Below, one piece after another: positions 7,501 to 58,637 of a DNA stretch of 58,732 bases. Source of the stretch: Rhizaria sp. SCN 62-66 (taxonomy: Eukaryota). The notes under the pieces were generated by a model. The model saw only the letters and a list, made by a program, of their open reading frames with translations, did no database searches and had not been told where the DNA came from. Location of the stretch: assembly GCA_001724265.1 (NCBI GenBank), contig MEDY01000165.1, forward strand, positions 1-58,732, in the 5' to 3' direction. Both the position numbers and the translations under genes were made by a program. Position 1 is the first letter of the stretch. Every line of letters begins with the position of its first letter.

Positions 7501-10500
7501 CGACTCGCGCACTGTGATCCACGACGCGTCGCTCTTCTTCGGTGAGCAGGAGGCCGTCATGGCCGCCATCCTCGCCCCCGGCGTCTCGTACGGCATCGTC
7601 TTTACCTACGACGGCGAGGAGATCCACAAGCGCTCGCTTGCGACGCAGCGCGCGTGCCCGACGATGCACTTGGACCTCGCGCTTACGCCGGCGTCTAAGC
7701 TGCAGCAATACGGCGAGACCGCGGCGACCGACGCCATGGACTCCCGCCTCACCGCTGACCCCACGCTCACCCACCAGGTACGGAAAGCAAAGGTCATTCT
7801 CTTCTCCACATTTTTATCAACACTTGAATGCACACAATTATTTCTCTCTCTCTTTCTCACACACTTCATTTTCGCTTGTTTGTGAATCTTTCTTAGGGAA
7901 CGAACCGCAATCCTATTGCGCCTGGCCATGTGCTGGCCCAGGGCGTCATGGAGGGCGCGATCACGCCCGTTGAGGCGGCCGCGCTGGCCGCGGGCCACGG
8001 CGCGTGCGTGTCGCGCCCGCACATCCCGACGTTCCCGGTGGACAAGGACGGCGTGTTTGACGTCCCCACGCTGGGCTTCTACAAGGACGAGCAGCTGGCC
8101 ATTATGACCGGCGACACGGGCCGCGGCCGCGAGACGGCCGACGCGGCGCGCTCCGCGGGGCGTACTGGCGAGCAGCTGGAGCAGGTGGTGTATCTGCTCA
8201 CGTTTGACATCCCCGAGGTGCAGCAGCGGCAGGCCTTTGTCGAGGCGCAGGTCGAGTTCAACTTCGTCTACGGCGACCTGCGCATGATGCTGCGCAACGC
8301 CGCCTCGGAGCTGCTCTACCTCGCCACGCCCGCGCTCAACAGCAACTCGCTCCGTGTCCCGCTGGGCCCCGGGCGCTACTCGCTGACCGTGCTGCTGCTG
8401 CGGCCCAAGGCGGCGCCTGTGCCCGAGCTGCCGTTTAACCTGCCGCACGTGTCCGGCGCGGCGACGGAGCACGCGGTGACGATGCCTGAGTGTCTGATGT
8501 ACACGTTCCGCTTTAAGGCCGACTTCGTGGCCGTGCCCGAGCTCCCCAGCGGCGAGCACCTCGCGCCCGACGACATTTTGACCGAGGACTGCGGCTACAA
8601 CCAGCTGCCCGCGCACCTTAACGTGCCCTCGCTCATGGGCTACCACGGCAACACGCTGCACTTCTTTGACACCTTCCGCTACGAGCCGTTCCAGATGACG
8701 CGCTACACGCACTTTGAGCTGCGTGAGCCGTCGCTGGTGCGCCTCTTCGTGCCGCACGACTCGAACCACCAGCAGGTCGAGATCCGCCTCGTGCACCTGG
8801 ACCACGCTAAGAACTCGTCCGCAGCGCACCGCGGCCACAGTACGGACGCCACTCACCGCGCCGGCTACGGGCTGGACGAGACGCTGTCCGAGGGCGACGC
8901 GTGGGGCGCGCACGACGAGGAGAAGGCGTGGGGCGACTACTCGCAGTACGCCGGCGACTACGACAACGAAGACGGCGTCGCCACCGCGCAGCACGGCGTC
9001 AAGGTCATGGACTACGACAACACCGAGGAGGAGCGCCTCGCCCGCGCGACGCGCCGGCTGCGCGGCGTGCAGGCCACGGACTCAGTGCACACCAACGCCG
9101 CGGAGCACATCGTGGACCGCGGCCGCAACTCGCGCGCGCGCGCCGCCGTCGACGCCACGATCGTGTCCGTCGGCATCATCTCGAAGCGGTACAAGTCCGA
9201 GTGGGTCGTCGCCGAGCTGGCGCCCGGCGCTTACCGGCTCGACTTCCGCGTCTCCGCGTCGCGCTTCTTGCCGCTGACCGAGACCAAATGCGAGGGCTTT
9301 TCGCTCGAGATGTCGGTGCAGCCCGTGCCGCGCGTCGAGAGCATGTCCAACGCCGAGTGCGTCGTCACCGAGACCAACGCGCCCACCATCCCCGAGGACA
9401 TCGTCGACGGGACCGTGATCTTCGGCGCGCGCGCGCAGGCCGCGACCCCCGGCAGCGGCGACGACGAGCGCGAGGGCGCTCGCGCTAAGTCGCTGGGCTA
9501 CTCGTACGTGGCCCGCGTGGAGCGCCAAAACTGGTCGCCGCAGACGCCCGTGGCAACGTGGGAGTTCTGGGTGCGCCAGCTGCCCGAGGACCAGGACGGA
9601 CTTATCTTCGACCTGGAGCTCGAGTACGACTTCACGCGCATCCCGCTCATCGCTTACCTGGAGGAGTCGCTCGACCCGCGCGACAAGGCCGCCGCCGAGT
9701 CCGCCGCGCGCGCACACGCCGTGCGTCGCGCCGAGGAGCGCGACGGTGACGACGCCGCGGACCGGCTGCGCGCGCGGCAGGCCAAGGCGCAGCGCGGCGG
9801 GCTTAAGGGCTTCAAGAGCGCGAACAAGACTGCGGCCGAGCTCGCGGACGAAGTTCTCGCGACCGTGGGTACGCAGGCTCGCGAGCGCCGCGCCGACGGC
9901 GAGCCCGCGACGCTGCAGGACCGCAACTACCAGACGCTGCGCCGCAAGCTCGCGCCCGGCTTCTACCGCCTTGCGCTGTACCTGCTCGCGCCGTACCCGT
10001 TCATCACGATCGGCGTCGACGACGGCCGTCCCGGCCCGCTGGACGACTTTGCGTGCGTCGAGTACGACATGCGCCTGCGCGTTATCTCGCCCAAGGAAGA
10101 GCCGCTTGTCGGCCGCTGCCTCGAGCGCTCGCACCTGCGCCCCGGCCTGATGCGACTGCCCTCGTCGCTGACGTCGATGCGCTTCCTCGGCTCTGACATG
10201 CTGGCGACGCAGACGCAGGTGCAGGGCAGGTTCTTCTTCCCGCGCATGCAACAGACGCAGCACTCGCTGCAGGAGCACCTGGACGCCATCGATGCCGACC
10301 AGTCGCACGCCGTCGCCTTCCACGACTCCAAGGCGCTGTCCAAGCGCCCACCGTCGGTCAAGCGCGTCGAGCTCGTCGTGCCCGCCGTCGCGCTGCTGCG
10401 CTTCGCCGTCGACGCGCTGGGCGTGCCGATGAAGGTGTCGCTGAACCGCGTGCTGTGTCTCTCGCACCCTGGCCGCCCGCTGTCTGAACAGGCCGAGGGC

Positions 10501-13500
10501 AGCGCCACGCGCGCCGAGCCCTGGGTCAAGTACGACATGCACCGCACACTCGCGCGCTCTAAGACCGCCGTGGGCTGCATCGAGAGCGTGTTCTCGTCCA
10601 AGCAGGGCCAGTTCTCGACCGCGCGCTTCGTGGACCCCGGCGTGTACGAGCTCGTGTTCGAGCAGGCGGCGCAGACGGTGGGCGACGACGCGCACGACGC
10701 GGCCGACTGCGTGGGCTTCACGCTGCAGCTCGCGCTCAGCGCCGTGCACGCCATGGCCGAGCCTGACGTGGTGGCCAGCAAGGTCTTCCGCACGGATCGC
10801 GAGTCGGGCCAATACGCAGCATGGGAACACGCCAACCGGCGCGAGCGCGACCGCGACGCGTACGACAAGGACGAGGACGTCGACCCCGAGTTCCTGGCCC
10901 ACGAGGAGACGCGCCGCGAGCTGGCGATCCACCAGAACTTCCGTCCCCACGCGCTGTTGTCGGACCTGGCGCTGTTCCAAGACTTCATTCCACTGTGCCC
11001 CGTGGTGGGCTCGGACCACTCGCCGCCGTCGCCGCCGCCCAAGGTCGAGTCGCTGTATCTGTACGACAGCGTGCGCCGCAACGAGCACCTGTACCTGCAG
11101 CAGCGCTACAACGAGCCGCGCTCGCACTCGATCCGCTTCAGCGTTGCGCACGCGTTCCGGCTCTACGCGCGCATCGCGTTCCCGTTCCTCTCAACGCACC
11201 TCACGCTGACGCTCACGAGCGTGGCCGCCGACGGGCTAACTGAGTACCTGGGCGAGGCGCGCTACAACAGGCATGTCATCGCCGTCGACGTCGCGCACGC
11301 CGGGGAGTGGATCCTCACCATCGCCGACGCGCCGCGCGCGCGCGAGGATACGCTCAAGCACCAAGGCCTCTTCTGCTCGTGGTACACCTTCCGCCTCGAG
11401 ATCGAGCCGCTGTCGCTGTCCGGCGCCGGCCCCTACGGCGGGCTGCTCCCAGCCGCGCTCAACATCCCGCCGCTGAACCTGCTCATGTCTTCGCTGGACC
11501 GCGTGCTCCCGCGCTTCCCCGAGGTGCCTGCGACGCTCAACTCGCCCGCGATGCTGGTGCCGCACCACTCGTTCCACCACTTCGGCGCGCACTCGCTGCT
11601 GCCGCCCGCGCGCCGCGCCGGCACCGCGGCTCACGTCCAGGCCGGGTACCGCCGCAACGAGATCCGTTTCCGTCTGCTGCACCGCTCGCTCGTGCGCGCG
11701 CTGGTGACGCCGGCGGTGCGGCCCTACCTGGACGCGCACATGGGCGCGAAGCTGCTGCTCGACTGCGACGCGTGCGACCCCGTGGCCGTGGGCAAGCGCG
11801 TGGCCGTGCACACGACGCGACACTACTCGTGGCTGCACGGCGAGCTCGACGTGGGCGACTACACGCTCACGATCGAGCCCAAGACGGGGCAGATGCCGCA
11901 ATCGTGGTTCCCGCTGCGCGGTGGCATGGACGTCGTGCTCGAGCTCGCGGTCGCGCCCGTGGCGCACATCCTCACCGGCGCCGACGACAAGCCCTACGAG
12001 CACGACGCGCAGCTGCACCACGCGGCGCCGACGCCCCGCGGCCGCACCGAGGACGGCAAGCGGTACGCGCTGCCCTCGGCCGACGCCGCCACGGACGCGA
12101 GCCGCGGGTGCGTCAAGGTGCTCAAGGAGCAGTCGTTCCACGTGTGCGCGCACTCGGAGACGATGTTCATCCAGCGCGAGAAGAGCCCCGACGACGCGCT
12201 CTCGCTCCACGGCGAGTACGCGCTGTGCCCCGAGCTCCAGGGCCACCGCGTGCACACCATCACGCTGGCGCTGCGCGAGCAATCCACCGTTGGGCTGGCG
12301 CTGCACTACGACTTCCTCATGACGGCGCTGCTGCCCACCATCACGGACGTCGTCAACGGCCACCGCTGGCACGGCGAGCGTATGCAGAACAGCTACCAGC
12401 TCTTCTCCGTGCTGCCCGCCGGCTACTACAACCTCACTATCGACTCGCTCGGTGCGCGCTCCGGCTCCTTGCTGACCGACCCCTGTCTGCGCGACACCTA
12501 CGGCTTCACGCTGCAGGTCACCCCCGTGCGCCCCGACGCCGAGGCGCCCGATGCCGCGGCGCAGTACCAGTCGTGGGCCAAGGCGCAGAAGCTCGCGCAC
12601 ACGATCCGCAAGCACAACATCCCAGCCGCCGCGCTGACCGAGACGGACCCGCTTGCGCGCGCCGTCCCGGCGAGAGCGGCCGCCGACGCCGCGGGGGCCA
12701 CGGTGGCGACCCCGGCCGAGCGCGCGCAGATCCACGCTCGCATCGCGCTGCTGCGCGCCGCCAAGGCGTCGCACCAGGGTCCCGCGTCTGAGGCGGCGTC
12801 GCTGGCGCTGTCGCCGGTGCTGCAGGCGTTCCACGCCGACGCCGCCGACGCGCAGATCGCGCGCGCGCTCGCCGCGGGCGCCACATGCCCGAATCCCGAG
12901 ATCCCCGCGCTGCTGCTGCCGCGCGACACCGAGGTCGTGATCACGTCGGCCGACGGGACGCAGATGCAGCAGGCGCGCCGCACGTGGCAGCCGCGCACGC
13001 GGTCGTCGCTGCAGAAGCTGCACAGCGATGAGGAGGCCGTGCGTCGCGACCACGTGGGCGTCAGCGAGGCGGGCGAGTTCGCCGAGCAGGCCGCCAAGGC
13101 GGGCCACGGTGAGGCCGTCGAGGCCAGCAACCTCAACGCACTCGCACTGGCTTACACGCCTGAGTTCTTCGCGCGCCTCTCGATGCCGTATGTGCGCGCG
13201 TACCCCGGCGACGGCTCCGTCTCGGCGTGGGTGCCCGAGTCTGGCGAGGCGCTGCCGCACGGCGTCACGCGCACGCTCGGCCTCAGCACGGTCGAGGAGT
13301 CGCTACTCTTCGTCGACATCCGCGCGCACTCGCCCGCTGTGCGCGAGCGCGCGCTGCAGGCCTGGTCCGTGGCGGCCGATGGCACGCGCCACGACGCCGA
13401 GGACGAGAAGGACGCGTCGCTGGCGCTGCCCGACGAACGCACAGGCGCGCACTCGGGCATCGACCTGCGTCCGCGCATCACGTACGAGTTCAACCGCGGG

Positions 13501-16140
13501 CCGCGCCACCAGTCGGTGTTCTGGCTGCCCGCCACGTACCGCCGCGCGCGCCGCGGGTGGCACCAGTTCGAGCTCGAGATCGCCGTCGCGACGGGCATGG
13601 AGCACGACCTCGACACCTCTGCGGCCACTGGCGGCGACGACGAGGGCGAAGGCTGCCACCTGTATTCGCTCGAGCTCGCCGTCGTGCCCGTCGCGGCGCT
13701 GCAGGAACACCTGTTCCGCTCCGACTGCGTTCAGAAGCTGCCCCCCGCGCACATCCCGTTCGACGAGCTGGGCCGCGGGCTGCTGTCGCTGCCCGACGGC
13801 GTATGGCAGTCGGGCCTGGTGGACCAGGCGCAGGGCGCGACCCGCGGCGACGACGCCACGATTGCGCACGGCAAGAGCTACCGCATGCGGCTGCACGTCA
13901 TGGAGGACGCGATCATCTCCTCTCAGCTCCGCTTCTCGTTCGTCACGGCGTCGTTCCGCATGATCATCTACAAGATCGAAGACGACGGCGAGGCTTACGA
14001 GTTCGCTCGCGCGCGCAACGTGCCTGCCGTGCTCTCTGGCCGCCACGAGGTGCCGCTGGGCCACGCGCTGTCGTTCGACCAGTCGCTCGACGTGTCGATC
14101 CGCCTGCCGCAAGGCAACTACCACATCGAGATCCAGGAGCAGATGTCCACTGCGCTGCACGAGATCTTGGGCCGCCTCGCGCTCATGCGCGCTGAGAAGA
14201 ACGGTGCGACCACGGTGACCAAGATGGAGCTCAAGTCGCTCACGTCGCAGCCGCTGTGCGTGCCGTTCGCTTTCTTCTTCGAGATGACGCCCGTGTATGC
14301 CGCGCGCGAGCACGGCACTGGCACGCACATGGCCATGCAGCGCATCGCTGCCGAGGCGCAGCAGCTCGCCGCCGCCGCCGCCGCCAACGGGGGTGTGCTG
14401 CCGCCGGAGCTCGCCGCCAGCGCCAGCGCGGGCTCGGCCTTCAGCCACGGCGAGAGCGTGTGCCGCGTCGAAGCCTGCGGCTGCAAGAACGCCGACGTGT
14501 TCGCGCACTCGCGCGACGACGCCAACACCAATACCGTCTCCGCGGCCGTCGCGACGCTGCCGCGCGGCATGCGCGCGAACCAGTGCCAGGTCGCCGGCAC
14601 GTGCACGCCGCTGGCCACGGCCGCCGCGAAGCGCAATGCGTTCGTGTGTCAGTGCGCGCGCGGGTACTCCGGCGCTCGCTGCGAGCGCTGCGCGTACGGC
14701 TACGCCAACTACCCCACGTGCACGCGGCTCCCGACCAAGGAGGAGCTGGCCGAGGCCGAGGAGGAGCGGCTGGCGGCCGAGGAGGAGGCCGAGGTCGCGG
14801 CCGAGGAGGCCGCTGCGCAGGCTGAGGCGCAGAGCCTGGTGGACGAGTGGGGCAGCCCGTCGTCGCTGATCGATACCAAGGTCGTCAACGGCACCACGAT
14901 CATCTCGATCCCGACCGACTTTGACATCGAGAAGGCCTTCTCGAACCCGTTCGTGGTGCCCTTCGACGTGCATTCGCTGGCCATCGGCGCCGACCTCAAG
15001 AAGAACCTCATCTCGGAGCCCGTGCTGCCGCCCACGCACAGCAAGGAGCTCGTGTCGAAACGCACCGGCAAGAAGTACCACCCTGCAGTGACGATTCCGA
15101 CCACGCCCAACCACATCAAGGGCAAGGGCGCGCCCATCACCAAGTCCGGCAGCGCCGCGGCAGCCTCTGGCGTCGACACCGGCGCCAGCGCGGGCGTGGT
15201 GTTCACGAGCGCGCCCACGGGCCCATCCGGCGCGGGAACGGCTGCATCCGCGGCAGCGACGGGCGAGCGGCGCATCCACTGCGCGCGGCCGTGCTACCGT
15301 GGCCGGTGCGACTACACGACGGGCCGGTGCGTGACGGACATCGACGTGGTGACGCCGTCCAAGGGCGACGTGTCGACGGGCCACGAGGGCACGGGCCGCG
15401 AGACGTCCGCGAGCGAGACCGTGGTGGAGGAGACGACCCCCGCAGAGTTGCTGGAGCAGGAGGCCCTCGCCAAGGCCAAGGCCAAGGCGCACGCGGGCAA
15501 GTCCACCACCGGCGCCGGCGCCAGCGCGGGCGTGCGCCCGGCCTTAGGCGGCGCGGGCGGGACCGCGGGCGTGATGTTCATCGACCCGCGCGCCTCGGCC
15601 TGGGACCGGCTGCTGTCGGCGCTGGCCTACACGCTCGGCGCGCTCATCTGCGTGCTCGCGTGCGCCGTGTTGGGCCTGCTCGCGCTCGACTCCAACTCCA
15701 ACGCCAACGGCAACCGGCAGCGCTGGCCGACCTCGGCCGCTGAGTGGGCTGCGCTCCTCGCCAGCGGGCTCGGCGCCGCCGCGGGCCGCGCGAGCGCCGC
15801 CGCGGGATGGGCCTTCCGCGCGTCGGGCGCCCGCTCTGGCGTGCGCTCGCTGGGCAAGAAGGTTGGACTTCAGCTTTTTGCGGGCGAGGGCGAGGACCGC
15901 GCCGCGCTCATCCACGGCCGCGGCGGCGCCGGCGCCAAGGGCGCGGGCGCGGCGCGGCACCAGGGTGTCACCTTCGGCGAGTGCGTGACCGCGACGGGCG
16001 GCCGCGCTGGCAGCGGCAACGGCAACGCCAACGGGGAGCTAAGTCTGGACGACGATGCCAGTGAGATGGAGGGCGGCGGCCGCATCAGGCGGACGGCGAC
16101 TGGGAACGGTGGCGCTGGCATCGCGCGTGTGTTGCAGTGA
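1540..16140 (+). CDS. Giant (~4,732 aa) predicted membrane-anchored surface protein: long helical N-terminal region, EGF/laminin-EGF-like domains, ten beta-sandwich-like modules, C-terminal TM helix
   Basis: Exons 1540-2237, 2385-4625, 4762-7777 and 7897-16140 join in frame across GT-AG introns 2238-2384, 4626-4761 and 7778-7896; stop TGA. N-terminal hydrophobic segment ALTALTIFILAILSVLTSF. Cys patterns CNHHGLC..CLCDPGF..CSTC..YPDC, CQCARGYSGARCERCAYGYANYPTC and CARPCYRGRCDYTTGRC. TM segment LLSALAYTLGALICVLACAVLGLLAL. The start is uncertain: the frame is open upstream and there is a possible acceptor AG near 1436. Confidence 0.85.
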
Positions 16141-24732: not shown

Positions 24733-27700
24733 TTAAATTTCGCGTTCGTAAAACAGCACATACCCCTCGCGTCCCGCCCTGGCGCCCCACACCTGCTCCT
24801 CTTCGAGGCCAACCATGACCAGGTCATCGTCAAACCGGCACCACACACGTTGACTTGCGCCGCTCGCGGTACCCGCGCCACCAAGCGCAGTCGCAGTAGA
24901 AGCGGCATTGGCGCAGGCGACCTGGGCGCTCGCGGCGGCGGCGGCGGCGGCGGCGTTTTGCGCCAGCTGCACTTCGGCGGGCAGCGTGCGGCAGCGCGTG
25001 GAAAAGCGCGAGCTGCCCACGCCCGCGGCACCGCTAAGTCCGGCCCCCGCCGCGGCGCCCAGGCTGCCCGGCGCGCCGAGGCCGAGGCCGACGGTACCGC
25101 TGAGGGAGCCCGGCTGGAAGGGCGACGACAGCGGCGGCGAGGGAGACGGCGACGGCGACGGCGAGTACGGGGACTTGTCGCTGTCGCTCATTGCCGCACC
25201 GCTCGCCGCTGCAGCAGTCAATGTTGCAGCTGCTGAGCTCGCCGTAGGAGTCGCGCTGAGTGCGCTGTGGTCGCTCGTCTTCACCAGTGCAGTCGCCGCC
25301 AACCCACCGGCAGTGGCGGCGTCGGCCTCAGCGATCGCCGCGAGCGCCGCCGCCGCGTCCGCCGCCGAGGCAGCCGTGCCTCCCAAGCCCGCGCCCGCGC
25401 CCGCGCCGGCGGCCACGGCGCCCGCGGTGGCGTTGGCCTGCGCGAGAAGCGCGGCGGCGAGCGCGCGGCGCGGCGGGCGCGGAAGCGCGCAGTCAGCGAG
25501 GTAGTGGCCCGAGAAGGCCAGCGGACCGCGGTGGCGCACCGAGGCCACCAGCTCATAGCACGACGACTGCAACAGAGACTGCGACTGCGAAGGTGACTGC
25601 GAGGGGAGCTGAGACGAGGGCACGAGAGCAGTGCTACTGGACGTGTTGTTGTTGATGGCGTTTGTGAACGAGTAGAAGGGCGCGAGGTAGAGCGCGATCG
25701 AGTCGAGCAGACTACGGCTGTCCTCGTCGGACAGAGGCAGTGAGAGCGGAGACTGCAACTGCAGCTGCGACTGCGAGCCAGCGACAACGACAGCAGTACT
25801 ATCATTACTGGGAGTCTTGTTGCCGCTGCTCTTGCCACCCTTAGGAGCGAGCGCAGCACTGTTGACTGTGCTCTTGGTCTTCTTGCTGTCGTTGCTGCTA
25901 AAGCTGGAGTCAGAACTAGAACTAAAGCTAAAGCTGGAATTCGAGCTCGAAGTACCGCTATTCATCGCACTGGCAGCGACAGAGCGAGAGTTCTGCTGCT
26001 GTTGCTGCTGCACAGTGAAGCGACCGAGGTCAAGACGGGCAAAGTGCCGCACGGGGTCCTGGCGCTTCACAGTCATCATCTGCGATGTTAGAACAAAGAG
26101 GAACAAAGAAAGTAGTGAGATAAGCTGAATGAGCGAATCGAAAAAAAGCACACACTTCGAATCATGAATACAGATCACAAACACATTGATAAGGAAACTC
26201 TCAAGCAATAAATTGATAAGTCTTGCGCAGTTTGTTTCACGTACGGGGTTCTTCTCCGACTGCGCGAAGCGCATAATGTGCGCGATCACGACCTGGGGCT
26301 GCTTGCGCACCTTGGTGGTGACGACGCCGACGGTGCCGCCGCAGCCGGGCCGTGCGCACACGGTGTCGACCTCGCGCGGCTCGAAGTACCGCGTCAGCAG
26401 CGACGCCACGCTGTTCGGGTCTCGCAGGTACCCCGCTGCGGCGTCCGCCTCGGCCGCGGCTGCGGCGGCAGCAGCGGCAGCGGCAGCGGCGCGCGCGGCG
26501 GCGGCCGCGGTCGCGGCGGTCACGCGCATGCCACGGCCGGCGTTGGCAGTGTCGACAACGTCGCTGCTGCTGTTGGCCTTAGAGCCGTCGCCGTCAGTCA
26601 GGCGGTCGCTGTTGCTGCTGTGACCGCCGCGGCCGCTGCCGCCGCCGCGGCTGCCGCCCCGGCTGCCGCCCCGGCTGCCGCCGCGCCCGCGCCCGCGGCC
26701 CGAATTGCCGGCACTCGCGCTTACGCTGACGCTGTTCGCACTCACTCCAGTGCCAGCGCCGTTGCCGTTGCCGGCGTTGGCGTTGTTGCTGTTGGGGGGC
26801 CGGCGCTTCGCGGGGTCGGGTAGGCCCAAGGAGAGAATAAACATGTCCTCCAGCGTGACGCGCTCCAGCCCGCACCCCTTAGACGGGGAACACTTAGACG
26901 AGTCAACATCAGTGTCGGTGTCGGTGTCGCTGATGTCGTCGCTATCACTCATCTTAGCAGTCTTAGTCTTGCTCTTCGCGTTCGCCTTGCTGCCGCCGCT
27001 CTTCGCGTTCCTGCCCTTGCCCTTGCCCTTGGCAGTCAAGCTCTCATTGTCGCTCCCGCTGTCATCGCTGTTGTCCGCGTTCGCGTCGTCGCCCTTGGCG
27101 CCGCTGCCGCTGCCGTTGCACTTGAGCGTGACGGCAACCTGCGTGCCGAACGTCTGCGCGACGGGGGACAGCTCGACCGCGAGGGCGGCGACCAGCTCAG
27201 ACAGCCGCAGCTGCAGCAGACACACCCACTCGCTGCCGCTGCCACCGTCGCTCAGACCAGCGCCGCCGCCGACGCTGGAGCCGGAAACGGGGCTGCGCTG
27301 GTTGAGCGCGTGGTTGTGGTGGTGCGGGCTGTGCGTGCGGCTGTGCGACCGGCTGTCGCCGGCGGCCGCAGCGTTGGCCACGCCACCAGCGCTTGTGCCG
27401 ACGCTGGCGCCGCGGCGCGAGGGCGTCGCAGCGGGCGTCCTGACTTTGAACCCGTCGCTGGCGCCGTTGTTCGAGAACGAGGCCGTCGCGGACAGCGGCG
27501 CCGGCGCGAACGGCGCTCCGTGCGAGCTGCTGCTGCTGCTGCCGCTGTTGTTGTTGCCGCTGGCGCTAAAGCTGGCCGCCGCGGAGACCGCGGCCGAGGA
27601 GGAGGACTTGTTGAACGCGGGGCGCGAGACGGAGATGGAGCGGCGCAGCGACGGCGAAGCGAGCGCCAGCTGCGCCGACTGCGACTGCGAGTGGGAGTGC

Positions 27701-38300: not shown

Positions 38301-41300
38301 CGACTGCGCCTGGGACTGCGACCGCGACTGCGAGTCGGCCGTGCTGTCGTACTCGCCGTAGTCATCATCGTCGGTGTTGAAGTAGTCGCTGTCATCATCG
38401 TCGCCGCTTGGCTGCTGGTCGCCAGCGACCGCGTCAGCGTTCTTGTCGGAGCTGTGGGCCGACGCCCCCTTGCCGCCCCTGCCAAGATACCGCCGGCCCC
38501 CGCGGCCGGACTCGTTGTCCCCCAGTCCGGCCTCGCTGCCAGTGTGCGCGAGCTGCGTGAGGGCGTTGATGCCCGTGACGGTCGGCCGCAACGGCACCAT
38601 AGGCGACGCCGGGCCCGTGTAGTAGTGCTCGTCGTCGAGCTCGCCCGCCGTGACGGTCGGCAGACGCGAGCCGCCCTTGCTGCTTTTAACATCGCCCCTG
38701 TCAAAGCGACCACTCGCCGCAGCGCTGCCGAGAGCAGTTGCAAGGCTCGTTTGACTGGCTACGTCATCGGGAGTCGAATCAGCGACTGTGGGCATGTCAA
38801 TTCCGACAACTCCGACCAGTTGTTGCGACTGCTGCCTCAGCGGCCGCGGCTGCCGCGCGAGCGAGCCCTTGGCGCCGCCCTTGCCATTGGTCGCGACCGC
38901 AGCGCTGTCGCCCTTGCCCTCAGCCCTGCTATCCTCCTCGGCGGCAGCAGCTGCAGCGGCGGCGGCATTAGCGGCAGCAGCAGCGGCGACCGTGGCGGCC
39001 TTGGTGGCGTCACTGCGCGCCTTGTCGATCAGCGCGAGCAGCTGTGCCCGCGCGTCGATGGCGCTGGTGCCGGCCTTGCCGACCGTGCCGTACTGCGGCA
39101 GCAGCGTGCCCAGCGCAAGGTGCTGTCCGGCCACTGCGGTGCCCAGCGGCGACCCCGGGGGCGAGCCCGCGCCCGCGCCAGAGGCGGCGACGTCTGAGGG
39201 CGCGGTCGAGAGTGAACCGGCCCGGGCCCGGAGCGCGGCGAGGAGGTTCTTGTCGCCCTGGGTCAGCGACGCCGGGTATGCGGCCTCGAAAGCGGCCAAG
39301 TACGCGTCAACGTCGTCTAGGCGAGAGAGCAGCGAGGGAACAGTATTGAGCGCGTTGAGCATCCCGTCCGACAGCGACAGGTCTTGCGCGCGGCTGGCCG
39401 CCGCGGCTGCGTGCGCAGACGGGGTGATAATCCCCACGTGCGGACTGCGGCTGCGGCTGTCGGCGTCGCTGCCCGCGCTCACGCTGTCGCCCTCGTCGCT
39501 GTTTGTATCGAGCTCCGAGTCGGGCGCGGGCAGCGCGTCTAATAACATAGATTCGCCGTCGGCGTCGCCAATGCTCGCGCTCACGCTGCCACGCGCCCGC
39601 GCACCCGAGGCCCGGGCCTTGGCCTTCGCAGCGGCGGAGACGACAGAATTGCGCTTCCGTCTCTGCTCAGCACTGTCCGCACTGGAGTCGCGCGCAGAGG
39701 CAACGCGCACCGCGGCCGCACCGGTCACGCCGGCGCCCCGCACGCCGACGCCGAGGCCCTCTGCAGCCAAATCATCCAGCGTGCTGTGGCCGCCCACACT
39801 GCTGCCGGAGGGCGCGGGGGACGGCACGGTCAGCTTGCCGGTCAAGCCCGCGCCCGCGGGTGGCTTGACTTCCTCGGTCTGGACGCCGCGGCTCACGGTC
39901 GCCGCGCTGGCCTGCACGGCCTTCTGCCCCTTATGCATGCCGCCGCGCCACGCCGCGACTTCGACGGCGGCTAGCTGCACGGCCAGCTCGCGCAGCGCCG
40001 AGTGCAGCTCGCGCTGCTCCGCGGTGAGCCGCGCCGACAGCGACGTGACCGTGCGCAGCTCAGCTGTCATGCCGGTCGTGCCGCGGCGGCGGCGCAGCGT
40101 CTCGGCGCGCCACAGCCGCGCACTCGCCTCGGCCGCGGCTACGGCGACGGCCAGCTCAGCCTCGGTCGCACTGCCGTCCGCCGCTGTCGCACGCGCTGCG
40201 TTCGCGGCCGCAGTAGCCGCGGCGTGGTCTGCCTCGGCCGCGGCGACGGCGGCGCGCAGCGAAGCCAGCGTGGCGGTCAGCTCATCTGCGTCGCGCGCGA
40301 CCGCGGCGCCGTCGGCGGCGTTGGCGTTCTCGAGTGCGTGGAGCTCTGCCGCGGCCGTCGCGCGCTGGTGCTCGAGCGCGGCCGTCTCAGCGATGTTGTC
40401 CTGCCGCTTCGCCGCGAGCCCGCGCCGCAGGTGCGAAGTCTGTTTCGCCAGCGCGTCGTTGCGCGCGCGCAGGTCTGCAATTTCGCGCTGAATCTCGCTC
40501 CGCTGCAGCGCCATCGAGCTCGCCTCCTCGCGGATGCTGTCCAGCAGGGCCTCGCTCGCGGCCGTGTGCGACGCCGTCTCAGACTGTAAGGTCGCAAGCT
40601 TGCCCACGGCGACCGCAAGCTCTTTCTCCTGCGCGGCAAGCTCGGCGTCCACGGCGGCAAAGCGCACTGCCGCGGTGTCGCGCGCGGCCAGCGAGGCCGT
40701 CTTCTGCTCTTGCAGCGCGCTCACAGCGGTCTCGGCGTCGCGTGTGCGCTCGCGGATGTCCTTGAGCGTCTTGATCGTGTCGAACTTGCGCTTGCGCATC
40801 TCCACAATGGCCTCGAACCCGGACCGCACGTGACCCTCGAGCACGGTGACGTCGCCCGCCGCGGCGGCCACGAGCGCGCGCGCGCCCGACTGCGCCGTCT
40901 CCAGCTCACCCTCGGCCTTGCGGCGCTCCGCGATCGCGCGCTGCGCAGTGCGGTGCGCCGCGGCGGAGGCCTCGGTGCGCGCGGTGTGCGCGTCGCGGGC
41001 CTCAGCCAGGCGCGACGTCGCGTCCAACAACGCAAGCTCCAGCGCCTCCGCCTGCGCTTGCGCAGAAGACAGCGACTGTGAGACAAAAACAGCATAAAGA
41101 AGCGAAGAGATGTGAGATGTGGAAAGATAACAAACAAAGTTGATATGCGACCATAACTTAACAATTTGCAACTATTGCCACAATAAACGTACCTTAACTT
41201 CGTTTTCTTCAAGCGCTTCTTGTGCGCCGACCTTGGCTTCCCGCCACCTCTCCCTCTCGGCCACGAGGCCCCTGAGCACCTCGTCAAGCGCACTGGCCTC

Positions 41301-49705: not shown

Positions 49706-51318
49706 TCAGTCGTTGCGGCGCACGAGAGGCTTCCACTTGCGCTTGCGCAGCGCGAAGAGGTCTTCGATCATAAAGCGCGCCCGGCTCGAGAGACCGATCT
49801 TCTGGGCGACGACGGGGTCCTTGAACGGGCCGAGGCGCGAGAACAGCTTTTGCATGACGTGGCCGTCTTTCTCGTTCTGGTACGACTCGAGCTGCTCGCC
49901 GACGACAGTGAACAGGGACACGAGGGTGTCGACCTACAACAGCAAAATGCGCACAAAGGCAACAGATTCATGAGAGGATTTACAAAACAGATGTCAAAAT
50001 AACATAGATCAGACTGTCATAGAACCACGTGTCAATGAATAAGCATATACGGGCATGGATATATCCTTAAATGTTATAAAACGCGAGTGACGTACGTCTT
50101 CATCGACCACGGGAGGCGAGCTCATATCCTCAATCTGCATATCGAGGATATAATAGACAATGATGGGCACAATGACATCTTCCTTGTACAGCGCGCCGAT
50201 AAACGTGGCAAATCCGCGGCAGGCGCGGCGGAACACGCTGTATTCGGGCTCCTGCAGACACGTAGCAGGATCGCTGTTGGCCTTGATTTGGGCAGAGACC
50301 TTGGTGTACTTGGCCTGGCAAGCGCGCGCAACAGTGTTCTTGATAACTTTCGCTATATGATAAGCAGTAGCAGAGCGAAAAAAGATCGTTGGAGTGATTG
50401 TGAGAGGTGCGAGAGGTACAAAAACAAATTAATAGAAACAAATTAACAGAAACAAATTAAAATCCTTCGACGCGGAGAGTTGTACGGAACACATCGAATT
50501 TGCTTGAACAAAGAGAGAGGTACGTACGTGCAATCTTCTCGTTCATGTCGGACATTTTGCGAATGAGCGTCGCATAGAGCGGGACAAACGCAATCTCAAG
50601 CTCTGCCTTGGACATCAGGATGTCGATGATTTTGGGCCACAAGTCCTACAGAAACGTAAAAAATTATACATGCCCAAAAGCACAAATATGAGATGTTTGC
50701 GAACAAAAAAATAACTTAATTGAGAGAGATGGGCATCATAAGCTAATAAAATGAAGTCGAAACACTGTCAAAATCACAAAAAGTCAGAGCGACAAAGCGT
50801 GATTTCTCGTCCATGTTAGCACATACCTGTGCAGGCGCCACAGCTTCGGCAATCTGCTTCGCGAACTTATCCATCGTGCTGGTGTTGAGCTTGTTCAACG
50901 ACATGCGCACCATCTTCAGCGTGTCCTTCTCAAACGCCGCCTTGCGCGCCGCCTCCGCCTCCGCCTCCGCCGCCTTGGCAGCAGCCTCCGCCTTGGCCTT
51001 GGCCTCGGCATCGCCGGCCCGGGCCGCCGCTGCCGCGCGCACCGCCTCCTCGGCCGCCTTGGCCTTGGCCGCCGCCGCCGCAGCCTCCTCAGCCGAGCTC
51101 TTGCCGCTGCGCAGCGCGGTGGGCACGAAGCGCGTCTCGCTCGCCACGAGCGGCGCCGAGAGCTGGCTCTTGTCAATCAGGTTTCCTTCACAGTCGTACT
51201 TCAGAGCGGGCTCACTGCGCATGCCGCCGCCACCGCCGCCGCCGCCGCGGTAGCCGCCATGGCCCCCGCCGTGACCTCCACCGTGACCCCCACCACCGTA
51301 GCCACCACCACCACCGTA

Positions 51319-51351
<33 letters not shown>

Positions 51352-52700
51352 GCCGTAACCGCCGCCGCCACGGCCGCGGCCGCTGTCCCGGTTGCTGCGC
51401 TCCTGCTGCTTCTGGCGCCACAGCGCAAACGCGTCTTCATCACTCGCGGTCTCAAACGTGCGCGTCTGGAAGCCCGCCACGAGCTGCTCAGGCGCACCCC
51501 GGCCCCCGTGGCCGCCGCCGTGCCCGTGGCCGTGCGAGGGGGAAGAAAACTTCTCGCGGCGCAGCGCAGCGTTGCGCTACCATACGCCGTCGCCCGTGGG
51601 CGCGCCGGTGACGCGCGCGCGTGGCGTCACGGCGACCGCGGTGGCAGCGGCGGCGGCGGCGTGGCGCGAGATGGTCTTGTAGCCCTCGGCGAGGATGTCG
51701 CGGTAGATGGACGGCGAGAAGACGGGAAAGGCCTCGCGGTAGTGGGCGGTCGCCATCAGCGCGGGCCGCAGCTCCATCAGGCGCGTGCGCGAGTAGAACT
51801 TGCGGTTGGGCCGGTCTGACGCCTGAGTCGAGCAGAAAGCAAGCATTGAAAAATAAATAAATGAGAAGTGAGAATCGGAGTAGGCAAGAGCGCATAATTC
51901 TGCTGAATAGAAAGTCATTTTGAAGTTTCAGAAGTCGCCAAAACGCGTACCTTGACGTTGTCGTGCGCGTTGGGGGCGAGGCTCACCGAGTTGAGCTTCT
52001 GCGTTGTCGCCGCGCGGACGGCCTGTGTCAACATGCGCCGACCGGCAGCCGCGACCACCGGGCGCGAGGGTGTCGCCACCGGATCCGCGGCGGCACCGGC
52101 GTCGCCCGCGTCACTCGCCTCAGCAGCAGCTGCAGCTGCAATGGCCGAGCTAGACGGGGCGGGCGTGGCGAATGCTGAGCGCGCGGTAAACAGCACGCTG
52201 GCAGGGGTGCGCGGTGCCGCGCCAGCGGTGCTGCTCGAAGCAGCAGCAGCGGCAGGACGTGATAGCAGGATGGCGATTGTGGCACTGTTCTGCGCATCCT
52301 TGGCCTCAAGCTCCTCAACGCGGCCAAGCAGCGCGTCGTTTTCCTTGCGCAGGTCGTCGACGAGGCGCACCAGACCGTGCTCAGACTCGGGGTTCAGGTT
52401 GTCCATGACGAAGCTGAGGTCTTCCTCGACTTTCTCACGGTGCTCGCGCTCGTTCGCGAGGTCTTCGGTGAGCTCGTCGACCAGGCCCTCAAGGCTGCGG
52501 AGACGCATGGTGATGTACTTAATGTGCTCGACGGTGAGAAAGTTCTCCGGGTTGTTGGATGACGCCGCAGACTGGGAACTCGCTGTGAGGGTTGTAGCCG
52601 TTGTTGGGTCTGCAGCGCCCTGTTCGGGGCTGGCGACGGAAAAGTCATCAGCACCCTCGGGCTGGGGGTCCGCAGAGGGATGGGACTTCTCGGTGCTCAT
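49706..52700 (-). CDS. EIF4G: eIF4G-like MIF4G-domain translation initiation factor (~782 codons) containing one in-frame TAG at 51579-51577
   Basis: Exons 52700-51951, 51822-50827, 50645-50528, 50352-50096 and 49933-49706; terminal stop TGA. eIF4E-binding motif YxxxxL-phi (YSRTRLM, 51795-51775). G/R-rich region. MIF4G motifs VRMSLNKL..MDKF, KAELE...LYATL, FIGALYK, LFTVVGEQLE and SSRARFMIEDLFALRKRKW. Confidence 0.85.
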
Positions 52701-53102
52701 CGGGTAGAGAAGGACAACGAGGCTGCAAGGAAGTGCGCCTCGGTCTGCAGGGGCAAGGGAAGGCGGGAAGCAGTGGAGCGGGTGTTTCCAGAGCGGGCGG
52801 CGTCAGACTAGGGTTAGACAAGGATAGACATGACTGGAGATAGTATAATTAACAAAGCAGTCAGAAAATAGGCAATCATATACATACAGGAAAAGAAATT
52901 CCGTCTGACGACGTATTTGTCGCGCTACAGTTCGTCCAATATTTAGATAAATCTGACTGACTGGCGACCGTGGTTAGAAAGTGCGCACGGTCACTTGCCC
53001 GGTGGCAGACCGAGACACCGACCAAACCGTGGTCACGATCAAGTGACCTGATCCAGTGCTTTTGCACTGTCACTTCGAGACTTACTGTTTCGTTAGCACA
53101 TT

Positions 53103-55080
53103 ATGGTACGTGATCCCGCGATACCCGTTGGGTTTATTAACATGTTTTGTTTTTTATATCTTTCCCCGCGACCGTTAACCGCGTCATCTGGGCAGCGGTT
53201 GCGAGCGGCAAATGAGAGTGTGACACAGCGACGCACAAGCCACACGCACGCACCGATCCGCACACCTCACTCTCACTCTTTGCTTATGTCTCTTCCTTCT
53301 GTTCCTCACAGAGCACTACTCTTAAGTCCCTGAGTCTGCAGGAGCAGGACCCCGAGATCTTCGACCTCATCGCGGCCGAGAAGGACCGCCAGGTCAACGG
53401 CATCGAGCTCATCGCCTCTGAGGTCCGTCGCACTTTTTCTTTCGACGCATTTGCGTCGCTATTCCTGTCAATTCTTCTTCATGTTTCTGATTTTGATCTT
53501 TATATTCAAACACGATCTACGAGTTCTCTTGGTTAATATGCATTTTTGTCTGCATTTGCGCTCGTTGTATTCAAAAAAATATATCTCATCATCCTCCCAC
53601 GTGCCTCCCCATCGCCCCTTTCACCCCGCGCTACACCACGCGCTATTTTTTCTTTTTCACTTGACTCCCCCGTTCCCTTTTACAGAACTTTACCTCCCGC
53701 GCCGTGATGGAGTGCCTGGGCTCTTGCCTCACGAACAAGTACTCTGAGGGCTACCCCGGCAAGCGCTACTACGGCGGCAACGAGTTCATCGACAAGATCG
53801 AGAACCTCGCCATCTCCCGCGCGCTCGCCGCGTTCCGCCTCGACGCCGACAAGTGGGGTGTGAACGTTCAGCCTTACTCTGGCTCCCCCGCCAACTTCGA
53901 GGTCTACACCGCCTTGATCAACCCCCACGACCGCATCATGGGCCTCGACCTTCCCTCTGGCGGCCACCTCACCCACGGCTTCTACACCGCCAACAAGAAG
54001 GTCTCGGCGACCTCGATCTACTTCGAGTCGCTGCCCTACAAGGTCGATCCCGCGACCGGCCTCGTTGACTTTGTCAAGCTCCGCGAGTCCGCCAAGACGT
54101 TCCGCCCCAAGATCATAATCTGCGGTGGCTCAGCCTACGCGCGTGACTGGGACTACGTGCAGTTCCGCGCCATCGCCGACGAGGTCGGCGCGATGCTCAT
54201 GTGTGACATGGCGCACTTTGCCGGCCTGGTTGCCGCCGAGGCCGTCAAGAACCCCTTCGACTACGCCGACATCGTCACCACCACCACGCACAAGACGCTC
54301 CGCGGCCCCCGCTCCGGTGTCATCTTCTACCGCAAGGACGCCCGCGACTTCGAGAGCAAGATCGGCCAGGTACATTTAACAATATTCGGAATTGAACTTG
54401 TATATTTACTTTTGTATTTTCTTAAATTTAATGTTGATTCTCAAATGTGCGCATATCGTTCTTATATTCCCACATTTGTTTGTGTCTTTATAATGACTCT
54501 CCGATCGTAGGCCGTGTTCCCCGGCTGCCAGGGCGGCCCCCACAACCACCAGATCGCCGGCATTGCCGTGCAGATGAAGGAGGTTGCCTCGGCCGAGTGG
54601 CGCGAGTACGCCAAGACCGTTCAGGCTAACGCGCAGACCCTGTGCAAGGTCCTCACGACCAAGGGCTACGACATCGTCTCCGGCGGCACTGACACGCACC
54701 TCGTCCTGCTCGACCTCCGCAAGCACGGCATCTCGGGCGGCAAGATGCAGATCATCTGCGACGAGCTTGACATCACGCTCAACAAGAACGCCGTTCCCGG
54801 CGACCTCAGCGCCATCAACCCCGGCGGCGTCCGCATCGGCGCCCCCGCGATGACTTCGCGCGGCTGCGGCGAGAAGGAGTTCGAGCAGATCGCCGAGTTC
54901 CTGCACCGCGCAATCACGCTCGCCAAGGAGGTCGACGCCGCCGCCAAGGCCGCCAGCGCCGACGGCGTCGTCAAGCTTGCCGCCTTCACGGCCGCCGTCG
55001 CTGACTTCAAGGAGCAGACCAGTGCAATCCGCACTGAGGTCCGCCAGTGGGCCGGCGCCTTCTTCATGCCCGGCAACTAA
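53103..55080 (+). CDS. SHMT: Serine hydroxymethyltransferase, probably cytosolic (455 aa)
   Basis: Exons 53103-53105 (ATG only), 53312-53422, 53686-54369 and 54511-55080; stop TAA. Motifs [43 protein letters not shown]-lysine motif [25 protein letters not shown]. No transit peptide evident. Confidence 0.97.
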
Positions 55081-55787: not shown

Positions 55788-57954
55788 TCAAGTCGCAGGC
55801 GTGGGCCGCTGGTCGGTGACACCGCAGCGGGGGCACGTGCGGCCTTCCTCGTCGCCGTAGTAGCTCACGATGCCCTCCTTGACCTGCCTGCCAAGGTCCT
55901 GGCAGTCGAACTCGCGTCGCCACAGTGCCGCAGTGCTGGCAGTGCCCGTGGGCTGCTCGCCAGTGACCGTGGGCGCTACAGTGACCGTGGTGCCAGTGAA
56001 GTCTCCCGGGCCGCCGATGCCGCCGAGACAGCCCGGTGTGCGGCAGTAGTACATCAGCGCGTCCTTCACGGGGCCCGTGGCGGCCGCGTGCTCGCTGCTC
56101 GCGCAGGCCACATTAGCATTCGCGGAGACACCAGAGGACACAAAGCCTGCGTTGACCGCGGTGGCACAGACGGGCTTCGCAGCGAAAGGGTTGGGGATCG
56201 CGCGGGAAACCTCGATAACGAGCCCGAGCGTGTCGGCAAAACGCTGCGGCGAGTGGGGGACGTTACCGGGCAGCAGGAAGCAGTGGCCCTGGGGGATGGG
56301 GACCGACTTGAACGCGCCAGCGTCGACGATGTCGAGCTGCATATCACCCTATCAAGAAAAAGGAATCAAAATTAGAACAATTTAGATTATGTTAATACCA
56401 TATATGTGATAGTGGCAGCTTATCTCGATTTCATTCGTTTGGGGACAGACATGTTTGTTTTGTGGCGACGTACTTTAAGCTGGTAAAACCACTCCTCGGT
56501 GGGGTTTACGTGATAATCCGTCCGGCGATTCGGTCCGCCGACAACCATAACCTTGAACTGTGTGCCGTTGCTGTGAAGAAGCTTGTTGCACACCGGGGGA
56601 AGTCTGTTGTTCCAAGTGTGCACACGGAGGTTAACAAAGTGTGCAGTGAACATGGTAAGCAAAGATATGACAGTGAGATAGAAGTAGTCAGGTGTACATG
56701 TGTACTAGAACGTTCATTGACATCACAAATATATGATATGATGCTATTTCAGTCTAAGCGCGCATATCAATAAATTCACGTACAATTCATGCTTATTGTC
56801 TTCGATCCAGCCCATCAGACTGCAGGGCGCGGGGTGCGTCACCGTGTTGATGACCGGGGCCGCCAGGTCACTTGACACACGCACACGTGCAGGCGCAGAG
56901 CCGCTGTGCTCGCTGTCAGCAGCGCCAGCGTAGACGGGGGCGGAGGCGGCGCCGGTATTTACATCAGGGTAAGGGGCGACGATGCTAACAAAGGAGACCG
57001 AGTCGGATGCAGGCAGACCGCCAGCACCGGCGGCCAACGCAGCGGTAGCCGCGGCGGCCTCACCAGCAGCAGCGGCAACAGCAGCGGCCTCAGCCGCCGC
57101 CTTCTGCTCGCTCTCGCCCTCAGTAGCGTTACTGGTGTCGTTCGCCTTTGCGGACTGCGCTTGCTTGGGCGGCTGGTCAACGACGCCGCAGCGCTTGCAG
57201 GTGCGCTTGTCCTCGCTGCCGTAGTAGTCCTGAATGACGCCGACGAGCTGCGTTCCAAGGTCGCTGCACGCGAAGCTGTCCTGGTGAGTAATGGCGCCGC
57301 ACCCGGGCGCGCGGCAGTACCACCGCAGCGAGTCCGTCGCGCCAGGCGGCCGCTCCAGCTCCAGCACCAGCCCGACCGAGTCGGCAACGCGCTGCGGCGA
57401 GTGCGGCGTGAAGGCGGGCAGCAGGAACTGCTCGCCGGCGCGGATGGTGATGTTCTTCTTGATGTTGCCGTCGATGACTGTGAGCGTCATCGAGCCGCGG
57501 AGCTGGTAGAACCACTCCTCCGTGGGGTTGACGTGGAAATCCGTGCGAGTGTTGGGGCCACCGACAATCATGACCTTGAATTGGCTTCCTGGAGCGCCGG
57601 GGAAGCAACGGGAATGAGTACATATGAGTTAGCAGGTGTGCGTTATTGATTGAAACCACAGTTTGGCGTAAGATAGGGCAAGACAGACCAAGTCTCCCAG
57701 GAGCAAAAACATGCTCAGCATGTACAAATATCGGCATCCTTGTTCTAAGCGACGTGAATTCGCTTACGCAAGGGATTCGAGACGCAGGTTATGCGAAGGG
57801 TAACATTTATCGAGGGTGAAGGAGGAAACGAACCTTTGCCATACATGAGCGTGTTGGCAACGGGAGGCTTGAGCTTGTGCCCGTTGGCATCAATCCAGCC
57901 AAGAAAGTCGCGTGCCTCAGCCGGGTGCGATTCACCAAAGGCAGTCGTGTACAT
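55788..57954 (-). CDS. HAAO: 3-hydroxyanthranilate 3,4-dioxygenase with two tandem complete HAAO domains (~538 aa)
   Basis: Exons 57954-57834, 57588-56784, 56603-56474 and 56348-55788; stop TGA. Each half contains GWI..N...L.PPV.N, VGGPN.R.D(F/Y)[20 protein letters not shown]....C and RTC.RCG. The start is provisional because the ATG is directly preceded by an acceptor-like CAG. Confidence 0.9.
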
Positions 57955-58637
57955 CTGGGAAGCTAACGAGATATGCAAAGTAGGACGATAAGGGCAGCAT
58001 GACGAGAGTTACATGGTCGGTTGGTGTGAGAAAATGACTGATTTAACATGTTATATGCTCTTAAAAGGAATAAAAGCTTATTGATAACGCACAATACCAA
58101 CGATTATATAGTATAAACTTAGTTAAAAGTTGGATTATGGTGGTATGGCTGCTTGAAACGTCATAGATATGCTGTGCTGACCGCAAAGCGCGAAAGTCAC
58201 GTGGATGCTTTACTCCGGACTCAGAATAGAGTACGAAGACCGCATGTAGAGAGCAAAATATTTGAGAAACATAGAAAAAGCAATAAAGTAGCATCGAATA
58301 ACGACTCGTCACTCCTTGTGACGATTAGTACAAGTCACAACACAAGTCGAGATCCCTCGTTTCAAGGCCCAATGAAGTGTCACTTCAAGCTCACGTGACT
58401 GCGGGGACACTTTAAGATGAACAGAGAGCGCTGGAAAGGGTTTAAAGTTGTTTTTGTGTATGGTGACATGCATATGTTCGCGATTTGAAACAAGTCGATG
58501 TAGTAACTTTGCGAGTATAGGTAGTAGAAGAGAGAGACATCGCTTGCCGCTCCGCCGTAACGGGGGACTGTCGCAGGAACAGCCACCAGAAGCAGAGGAG
58601 CAGCAGACGACCAAGATCGACAACAGCGGCAAGCTGC

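Follow-up and report, generated by a model that had tools for sequence, protein, structure and literature searches.

The 58,732-nucleotide stretch analysed here (positions 1 to 58,732 of contig MEDY01000165.1 from Rhizaria sp. SCN 62-66; referred to as the window) contains on its minus strand a gene for a putative eIF4G-like protein whose reading frame is interrupted by a single TAG. The codon separates an eIF4E-binding motif from a sequence related to the MIF4G domain, and it is present in the genomic DNA as well as in the mature RNA. We consider ordinary termination at a young, fixed nonsense codon, which would yield a protein of 331 amino acids, as the best explanation and assign to it a probability of about 0.5. 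Plain termination was preferred because it needs no special mechanism and because nonsense alleles are far commoner than programmed readthrough of the size of a whole domain. Note that all facts fit two stories, namely a young fixed nonsense mutation or a maintained leaky stop. The young nonsense allele explains the same facts equally well as the recoding switch that had been proposed from the letters of the DNA (the sequence-only reading).

The minus strand reads GAC GGC GTA TGG TAG CGC AAC GCT GCG CTG, as the sequence-only reading had quoted it, and the TAG at 51579-51577 is in frame as codon 332, within exon 2. Four public runs were compared with the window in the form of Logan assembled contigs, which hide minor alleles and isoforms. 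The DNA contig X3 record 6 (51396-52723), which is possibly not independent of the window, showed no differences, TAG included. The same holds for the DNA contig X4 record 14 (51536-52051, including intron 1), which originates from another study of the year 2025. Run X4 has a T>C exchange at position 52705 and is therefore not the sample from which the window was assembled. This exchange is the sole difference listed over the 3.5 kb compared, corresponding to a very low population diversity. In the poly(A) metatranscriptome X5, record 20 (597 nucleotides) joins 51411-51821 to 51950-52135 free of mismatches and gaps. The contig lacks exactly intron 1 and then runs colinear through the TAG and through both of the atypical introns that had been suggested around it. 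The TAG was read in RNA from this one contig, at a k-mer depth of 4.7; X6 record 28 confirms the junction of intron 1, and no listed X6 piece spans the TAG. A constitutive GC-rich intron starting at 51585, one of the alternatives named by the sequence-only reading, is excluded for the assembled form of the RNA, since the spliced X5 record 20 follows the DNA colinearly through 51411-51821. Editing of the TAG, for which a search had been advised, is absent from the assembled RNA, X5 record 20 having no mismatch. The open reading frame (ORF) occurs in two versions in a collection of 15 billion proteins, P0002 on seven contigs and P0124 on one. All eight database contigs (JGI/IMG, Logan, ENA, MetaClust) end the ORF at GDGVW, and no run-through version of it was found in the searches of the protein collections.

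The exon/intron model was derived from sequence, frame and composition, and introns 2-4 are without a junction-spanning RNA contig. The gene comprises five exons; splicing by coordinates gives 2346 nucleotides, i.e. 782 codons, and the sole internal stop is codon 332. The product sizes that had been announced for the two outcomes, 331 amino acids upon termination and about 782 upon decoding of the TAG, were both reproduced in this way. All four introns are of the GT..AG type, have a length of 128-181 nucleotides and a GC content of 35-40%. In this GC-rich DNA an open frame by itself is uninformative, as both strands offer several open frames in the region. A coding score was therefore computed as codon log-odds, trained on 12,559 codons from the window's seven long ORFs. 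The part of exon 2 that precedes the TAG scores 0.78 bits per codon. The 58 codons past the TAG score 0.605 bits per codon in frame; the two remaining frames give -0.395 and -1.385. Among 426 equally long off-frame windows taken from the long ORFs, none attains 0.605, and the in-frame windows have a mean of 0.75 with a standard deviation of 0.29. The scores of exons 3, 4 and 5 are in the range of 0.76-1.04. Judged by the scores of the post-TAG stretch and of exons 3-5, the TAG interrupts one evolved reading frame. This agrees well with the earlier claim that the frame continues past the TAG with unchanged codon style and without a further lesion. The elements of the gene are the following, in the order of transcription:

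51951-52700, minus strand: exon 1; 250 codons beginning with ATG at 52700-52698, N-terminal heptad-like stretch, in-frame coding score 0.656, connected with exon 2 in RNA (X5, X6)
51823-51950, minus strand: intron 1; 128 nucleotides, GT..AG, 40% GC, exactly skipped by the RNA contigs X5 record 20 and X6 record 28
50827-51822, minus strand: exon 2; 332 codons with the eIF4E-binding motif, the TAG, a Gly/Arg-rich and an Ala-rich region and, probably, the beginning of MIF4G
51766-51795, minus strand: extended eIF4E-binding motif YSRTRLMELR; residues 260-269, of the form YX(R/K)X2L-Phi-X2(R/K)
51402-51576, minus strand: post-TAG coding stretch; the 58 codons immediately 3' of the TAG, identified by their coding score in the same frame
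51223-51401, minus strand: low-complexity region rich in Gly, Arg, Tyr and His (RGG/GYG-like), identified from the translation
51220-51222, minus strand: first in-frame ATG past the TAG; residue 451, 119 codons downstream, would begin a MIF4G-only product of 332 amino acids
50646-50826, minus strand: intron 2; 181 nucleotides, GT..AG, 35% GC, modelled from sequence, frame and composition
50528-50645, minus strand: exon 3; MIF4G profile positions 36-67
50353-50527, minus strand: intron 3; 175 nucleotides, GT..AG, 38% GC
50096-50352, minus strand: exon 4; presumed middle of MIF4G, coding score 0.757 in frame
49934-50095, minus strand: intron 4; 162 nucleotides, GT..AG, 38% GC
49706-49933, minus strand: exon 5; MIF4G profile positions 143-203 (end of the domain), including the terminal TGA at 49708-49706, crossed by the RNA contigs X5 record 16 and X6 record 22

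The low-complexity region at 51223-51401 interrupted the contigs in all four runs compared. The depth of X5 is zero over the bins inside introns 2, 3 and 4, and no contig joins across them; this was not counted as evidence of splicing. X5 record 18 (50464-50637) covers exon 3 plus 64 nucleotides of intron 3, which could be due to intron retention, to pre-mRNA, or to carry-over of DNA into the library. An apparent 682-nucleotide joint from 51533 to 52216 (X5, X4) was rejected as low-complexity cross-matching, its sides being 18-20 nucleotides long with 32 foreign letters between them.

The core YSRTRLM, which the sequence-only reading had noticed as a YxxxxL-Phi motif in front of the TAG, is located at residue 260 (51795-51775), near the start of exon 2 and N-terminal to the MIF4G region. 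It is part of YSRTRLMELR, the single match of the protein to the extended consensus, with an Arg at positions 2 and 9. According to the accessible text of a paper on these motifs (PMC6061780), the canonical form is YX4L-Phi, and the extended consensus carries R/K at positions 2 and 9. The extended pattern arose by chance in 0.3% of 20,000 shuffles of the protein and has no match in the other long ORFs (12,559 residues). By itself the core pattern turns up often, in 23% of the shuffles and with seven background matches. A hydrophobic/aromatic stretch follows 12-25 residues past the motif, so that motif and stretch together comprise residues 260-300. Past the TAG, a glycine-rich stretch of the RGG/GYG type is followed by an alanine-rich stretch and then by sequence matching the MIF4G profile of Pfam. 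PF02854 matched exon 3 with profile positions 36-67 (E 7.9e-5, 22.9 bits) and exon 5 with positions 143-203 (E 1e-5, 25.8 bits). The two matches are collinear, and each is below the cut-off of 30.8 bits, the exons having been searched separately. Searched singly, exon 4 and the end of exon 2 had no Pfam match, and a PDB search with exons 4 and 5 gave nothing significant; the best hit for exon 5 was eIF4G1 with E 0.52. Of the intact MIF4G domain described earlier, the collinear matches in exons 3 and 5 were thus recovered; since both are below the cut-off and exon 4 has none, its intactness is inferred. Based on the profile matches, the designation as a putative divergent MIF4G domain is justified, and the gene is called here that of a presumably eIF4G-like, lineage-specific protein. 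MA3 and W2 domains gave no Pfam match, and the protein ends about 10 residues past the end of the MIF4G profile, at the TGA 49708-49706. These two domains are not known from yeast eIF4G either and do not define the family as a whole. For the region of exon 1 that had been described as a coiled coil, the only match was a weak one to ZapB (E 0.063).

Relatives were searched for with several methods. A scan of metagenome contigs with the 140 amino acids around the TAG gave 594 pattern matches, of which none was confirmed. A HMMER search with the same 140 residues against 1.84 billion representatives gave two matches, the ORF itself (P0002) and P0003. The latter, a cadherin-repeat protein that matches residues 17-49, was judged to be spurious. 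A word-indexed search over proteins of 77-245 amino acids found P0002 only, and exon 5 had no match among longer proteins (133-2000 amino acids). As judged from these sequence comparisons, no orthologue of the putative eIF4G-like protein is detectable outside its own species in the collections searched. The neighbouring gene codes for serine hydroxymethyltransferase (SHMT); both genes are transcribed divergently and are separated by a spacer of about 600 nucleotides (52700-53300). The closest named relatives of SHMT are 70-77% identical and are scattered across plants, stramenopiles and one chytrid. A further relative, P0005, is 89% identical and lies on a metagenome contig of 6.9 kb; another, P0007 on an ENA contig, is 84% identical. 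A scan with P0005 yielded 80 other SHMT loci with a best identity of 69%, and the contig of P0005 was not among them. With SHMT as the divergent neighbour, this contig might carry an orthologue of the eIF4G-like gene.

If termination is the correct explanation, the organism would read UAG with its standard meaning, and the codon would be a real premature stop, retained in the mature mRNA after splicing and polyadenylation. Ribosomes would mostly terminate there and release the 331-residue protein, which would consist of the N-terminal heptad-like region and the extended eIF4E-binding motif and would lack both the RGG region and MIF4G. We infer a predominance of termination, a recent origin of the lesion and binding of the short product to eIF4E. 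The intact state of the downstream 450 codons would most probably be due to the recent origin of the nonsense change and its fixation in a nearly clonal, widely distributed population; with such low diversity of the population, damage to the downstream exons would not be expected so soon after the lesion. The full-length protein of 782 residues would arise only from basal near-cognate readthrough, slightly favoured by the C at position +4.

Several observations weigh against this explanation. The TAG recurs in samples from 2015-2025 and in several studies, including the run that bears the exchange at 52705, and thus is no mutation private to a single sample. Three exon junctions lie downstream of the premature stop and could expose the mRNA to nonsense-mediated decay, yet it is detectable; minor alleles or minor isoforms would be invisible in the contigs. 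The 450 codons downstream, the four GT..AG introns and their phases are without a second lesion, and the codon usage remains fully coding-like past the TAG; such uninterrupted downstream coding is exactly what maintained readthrough predicts. TAG terminates none of the 10 placeable gene ends of the window (six TAA, four TGA), which is a small sample. In addition, according to the available part of a study in mammalian cells (PMC5829715), a C at position +4 lifts readthrough of UAG above the average for the series in nearly every context. The claim of the sequence-only reading that a C after the stop favours readthrough is hence borne out for UAG in these cells.

The first rival is programmed readthrough, in which a near-cognate tRNA would decode UAG in a regulated fraction of passages, and one mRNA would give a 4E-BP-like protein of 331 residues as well as an eIF4G-like scaffold of 782 residues. 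As is expected for readthrough, the stop is retained in the mature mRNA and a coding-like ORF continues in frame beyond it through intact exons. Furthermore, the stop separates precisely the 4E-binding region (residues 260-300) from the RGG/MIF4G part, and it is fixed in every sample that could be examined. However, within the context UGG UAG CGC AAC, the +4 C is the sole favourable feature. The hexanucleotide CGC AAC does not fit the CAR-YYA motif of plant viruses, and extensions of 450 residues with a whole domain are rare among known readthrough genes. No stable 3' structure was found: the 106 nucleotides at 51585-51480 fold with -46.8 kcal/mol, compared to -50.45 +/- 3.14 for shuffled sequences (z +1.16), and 178 of 200 shuffles fold at least as well as the native sequence. 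Conservation of the stop is unsupported, as no orthologue was found in the collections searched, and UAG is intrinsically far tighter than UGA (PMC5829715, as far as its accessible text goes). Taken together, we regard programmed readthrough, for which no positive signal was found, as a serious alternative that is, nevertheless, clearly less probable than termination at a young nonsense codon. More tentative still is the wider proposal that a leaky UAG makes one mRNA of this uncultured protist the source of an eIF4E-sequestering protein and of an eIF4G-like scaffold, with the efficiency of termination deciding how far cap-dependent initiation is repressed or activated. Three other recoding mechanisms, namely ribosomal hopping, selenocysteine and pyrrolysine, were dropped as explanations, since the codon is the wrong one or a pair of take-off and landing sites is missing. 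To our knowledge, no machinery for these processes exists in eukaryotic nuclei.

A bypass of the stop in a minority of transcripts or initiation events appears unlikely. It would occur by a rare in-frame splice from the GTATGG at 51585 to the AAG at 51550 (36 nucleotides) or to the CAG at 51484 (102 nucleotides), or by a start at the ATG 51222-51220. Both excisions would preserve the frame and would use a GTATG donor as in the real introns, rare variants drop out of contigs, and an in-frame ATG is indeed present 119 codons past the TAG. In contrast, the assembled poly(A) RNA is colinear over this region, and the candidate introns would have 67-74% GC at 36 or 102 nucleotides, compared to 35-40% GC at 128-181 nucleotides for the real ones. 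Within exon 2 there is also no AT-rich gap resembling a promoter, and reinitiation past an ORF of 331 codons is inefficient in eukaryotes. Even less support can be given to a reassignment of UAG, e.g. to Gln, or to an early stage of it in which UAG is still very rare as a sense codon; we consider this highly improbable. It would account for the 10 gene ends without TAG, and the known UAG-only reassignments do retain UAA and UGA as stops according to the part of PMC5304391 that was available. If a share of 20% is assumed for TAG, however, its absence from 10 terminators has a chance probability of about 0.1. The other coding sequence of the window amounts to 13,772 codons, made up of the seven long ORFs (12,559 codons, 788 to 2,747 each), SHMT, ETF-beta, two units of 3-hydroxyanthranilate 3,4-dioxygenase (3-HAO) and a Q-rich ORF; the SHMT, ETF-beta and 3-HAO pieces are supported by Pfam, and the Q-rich ORF has no Pfam match. 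An in-frame TAG occurs in none of these 13,772 codons, with the seven long ORFs being TAG-free by construction, whereas the known cases have 1.6 to 5.4 per gene (PMC5304391). The reassignment considered by the sequence-only reading is disfavoured by this count. When TAG was read as sense, six of the seven long ORFs gained at most 23 codons. The seventh gained 222 codons via the TAG 41174-41172, which was rejected as a second in-frame case, since it lies inside an AT-rich in-frame intron. TAG is not avoided globally, with 59 occurrences in the long ORFs' off-frames. The window contains no tRNA with the anticodon CUA. The least probable explanation, for which no evidence emerged, is an artefact of sequencing or assembly that conceals a true base giving a sense codon. 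The base-call error that had been kept in mind earlier is excluded, as far as contigs can show, by the identical sequence in the window, in the DNA contigs X3 and X4, of which the latter is from the independent run of 2025, in the RNA contig X5 and in the eight database contigs.

The window as a whole consists of GC-rich exons (about 68-72% GC) with short AT-rich introns and spacers, and 86% of the third codon positions are G or C. Besides SHMT, its eukaryotic genes include a MyTH4 myosin, a UCH deubiquitinase, ETF-beta and 3-hydroxyanthranilate dioxygenase. The public runs that contain the stretch are metagenomes and metatranscriptomes from bioreactors, wastewater and activated sludge, and date from 2015 to 2025. 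The single tRNA of the window is a tRNA-Thr (CGU) at 67-138 on the plus strand. Two tandem units of 3-HAO are located at 55788-58008 on the minus strand (E 2.6e-43 and 1.5e-16 for Pfam 3-HAO). From the upstream unit, the ORF passes stop-free via an Ala-rich linker into the apparent N-terminal exon of the second unit, and the locus may be a fused, tandem-duplicated 3-HAO gene. At 2398-16140 on the plus strand, AT-rich gaps of about 170 nucleotides (4607-4775 and 7765-7930) lie between three long ORFs (788, 1,127 and 2,747 codons). Together these ORFs resemble a single giant gene exceeding 4,600 codons; this candidate had no Pfam match and contains much coiled-coil-like sequence rich in Ala, Glu and Leu. 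AT-rich in-frame introns are located within long ORFs of the minus strand at 26056-26263 and 41060-41200. The UCH gene contains an AT-rich in-frame intron without a stop, so that an ORF of 2,212 codons passes straight through it. In a gene of 1,940 codons, the AT-rich in-frame intron holds the sole other apparently in-frame TAG.

If the stop simply terminates, the lineage-specific gene of the eIF4G-like type merely bears an ordinary nonsense allele, and the locus serves mainly as a warning for gene callers on metagenome contigs of protists. If the stop were leaky by design, cap-dependent translation would be repressed and activated by two products of one transcript, whose ratio would depend on the efficiency of termination. 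The termination machinery would thereby feed back on initiation. The locus is a well-defined one and open to testing. A literature search on stop codon readthrough together with eIF4G and MIF4G, in which titles and openings of abstracts were available, returned work on termination and on factors of nonsense-mediated decay and no description of a readthrough eIF4G; this is weak evidence that such a case is absent from print.

The locus can be compared with four kinds of known systems. Programmed readthrough with a large C-terminal addition occurs in the Drosophila genes kelch and headcase and in the replicases of plant viruses (UAG-CAR-YYA). These cases and the gene studied here have in common an in-frame stop in the mature mRNA that is followed by a long coding-like ORF. 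The context UAG CGC AAC and the lack of a stimulatory structure distinguish the latter, a candidate for readthrough. Among nuclear codes in which only UAG has changed, UAG stands for Leu in the rhizarian exLh and for Gln in Iotanema spirale, as given in the accessible part of PMC5304391. As in these organisms, UAA and UGA are the sole terminators (10 of 10 gene ends) and a UAG is found within a coding frame. In contrast, there is one in-frame UAG in about 14,500 codons of the window, whereas 384 were reported in 71 genes and 204 in 126 genes of the two variants (PMC5304391).

With the eIF4G family, the putative protein shares the order and the typical spacing of an extended, canonical motif for binding of eIF4E, an RGG region of RNA-binding-like type and a putative MIF4G/HEAT domain. 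It differs by the divergence of its MIF4G, which is below the Pfam cut-off in each exon match, by the N-terminal heptad-like region, by the lack of a detectable homologue outside its own species, and by the in-frame UAG that parts the two functional halves. Unlike eIF4G of the metazoan and plant type, it has no MA3 or W2 domain and ends shortly after MIF4G. The 331-residue product in turn would resemble the 4E-BPs and other eIF4E-binding repressors, which have a bipartite arrangement of canonical and non-canonical motifs: it would possess the extended motif (according to the motif rules in the available text of PMC6061780), the hydrophobic/aromatic stretch 12-25 residues further on, and no domain for binding of eIF4A. 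Compared to 4E-BP1-3, it is much larger, has an N-terminal region of 250 residues and shows no sequence homology to any 4E-BP. Judged by its motif content, the pre-stop product would therefore be similar to a 4E-BP in its way of working and not in its ancestry.

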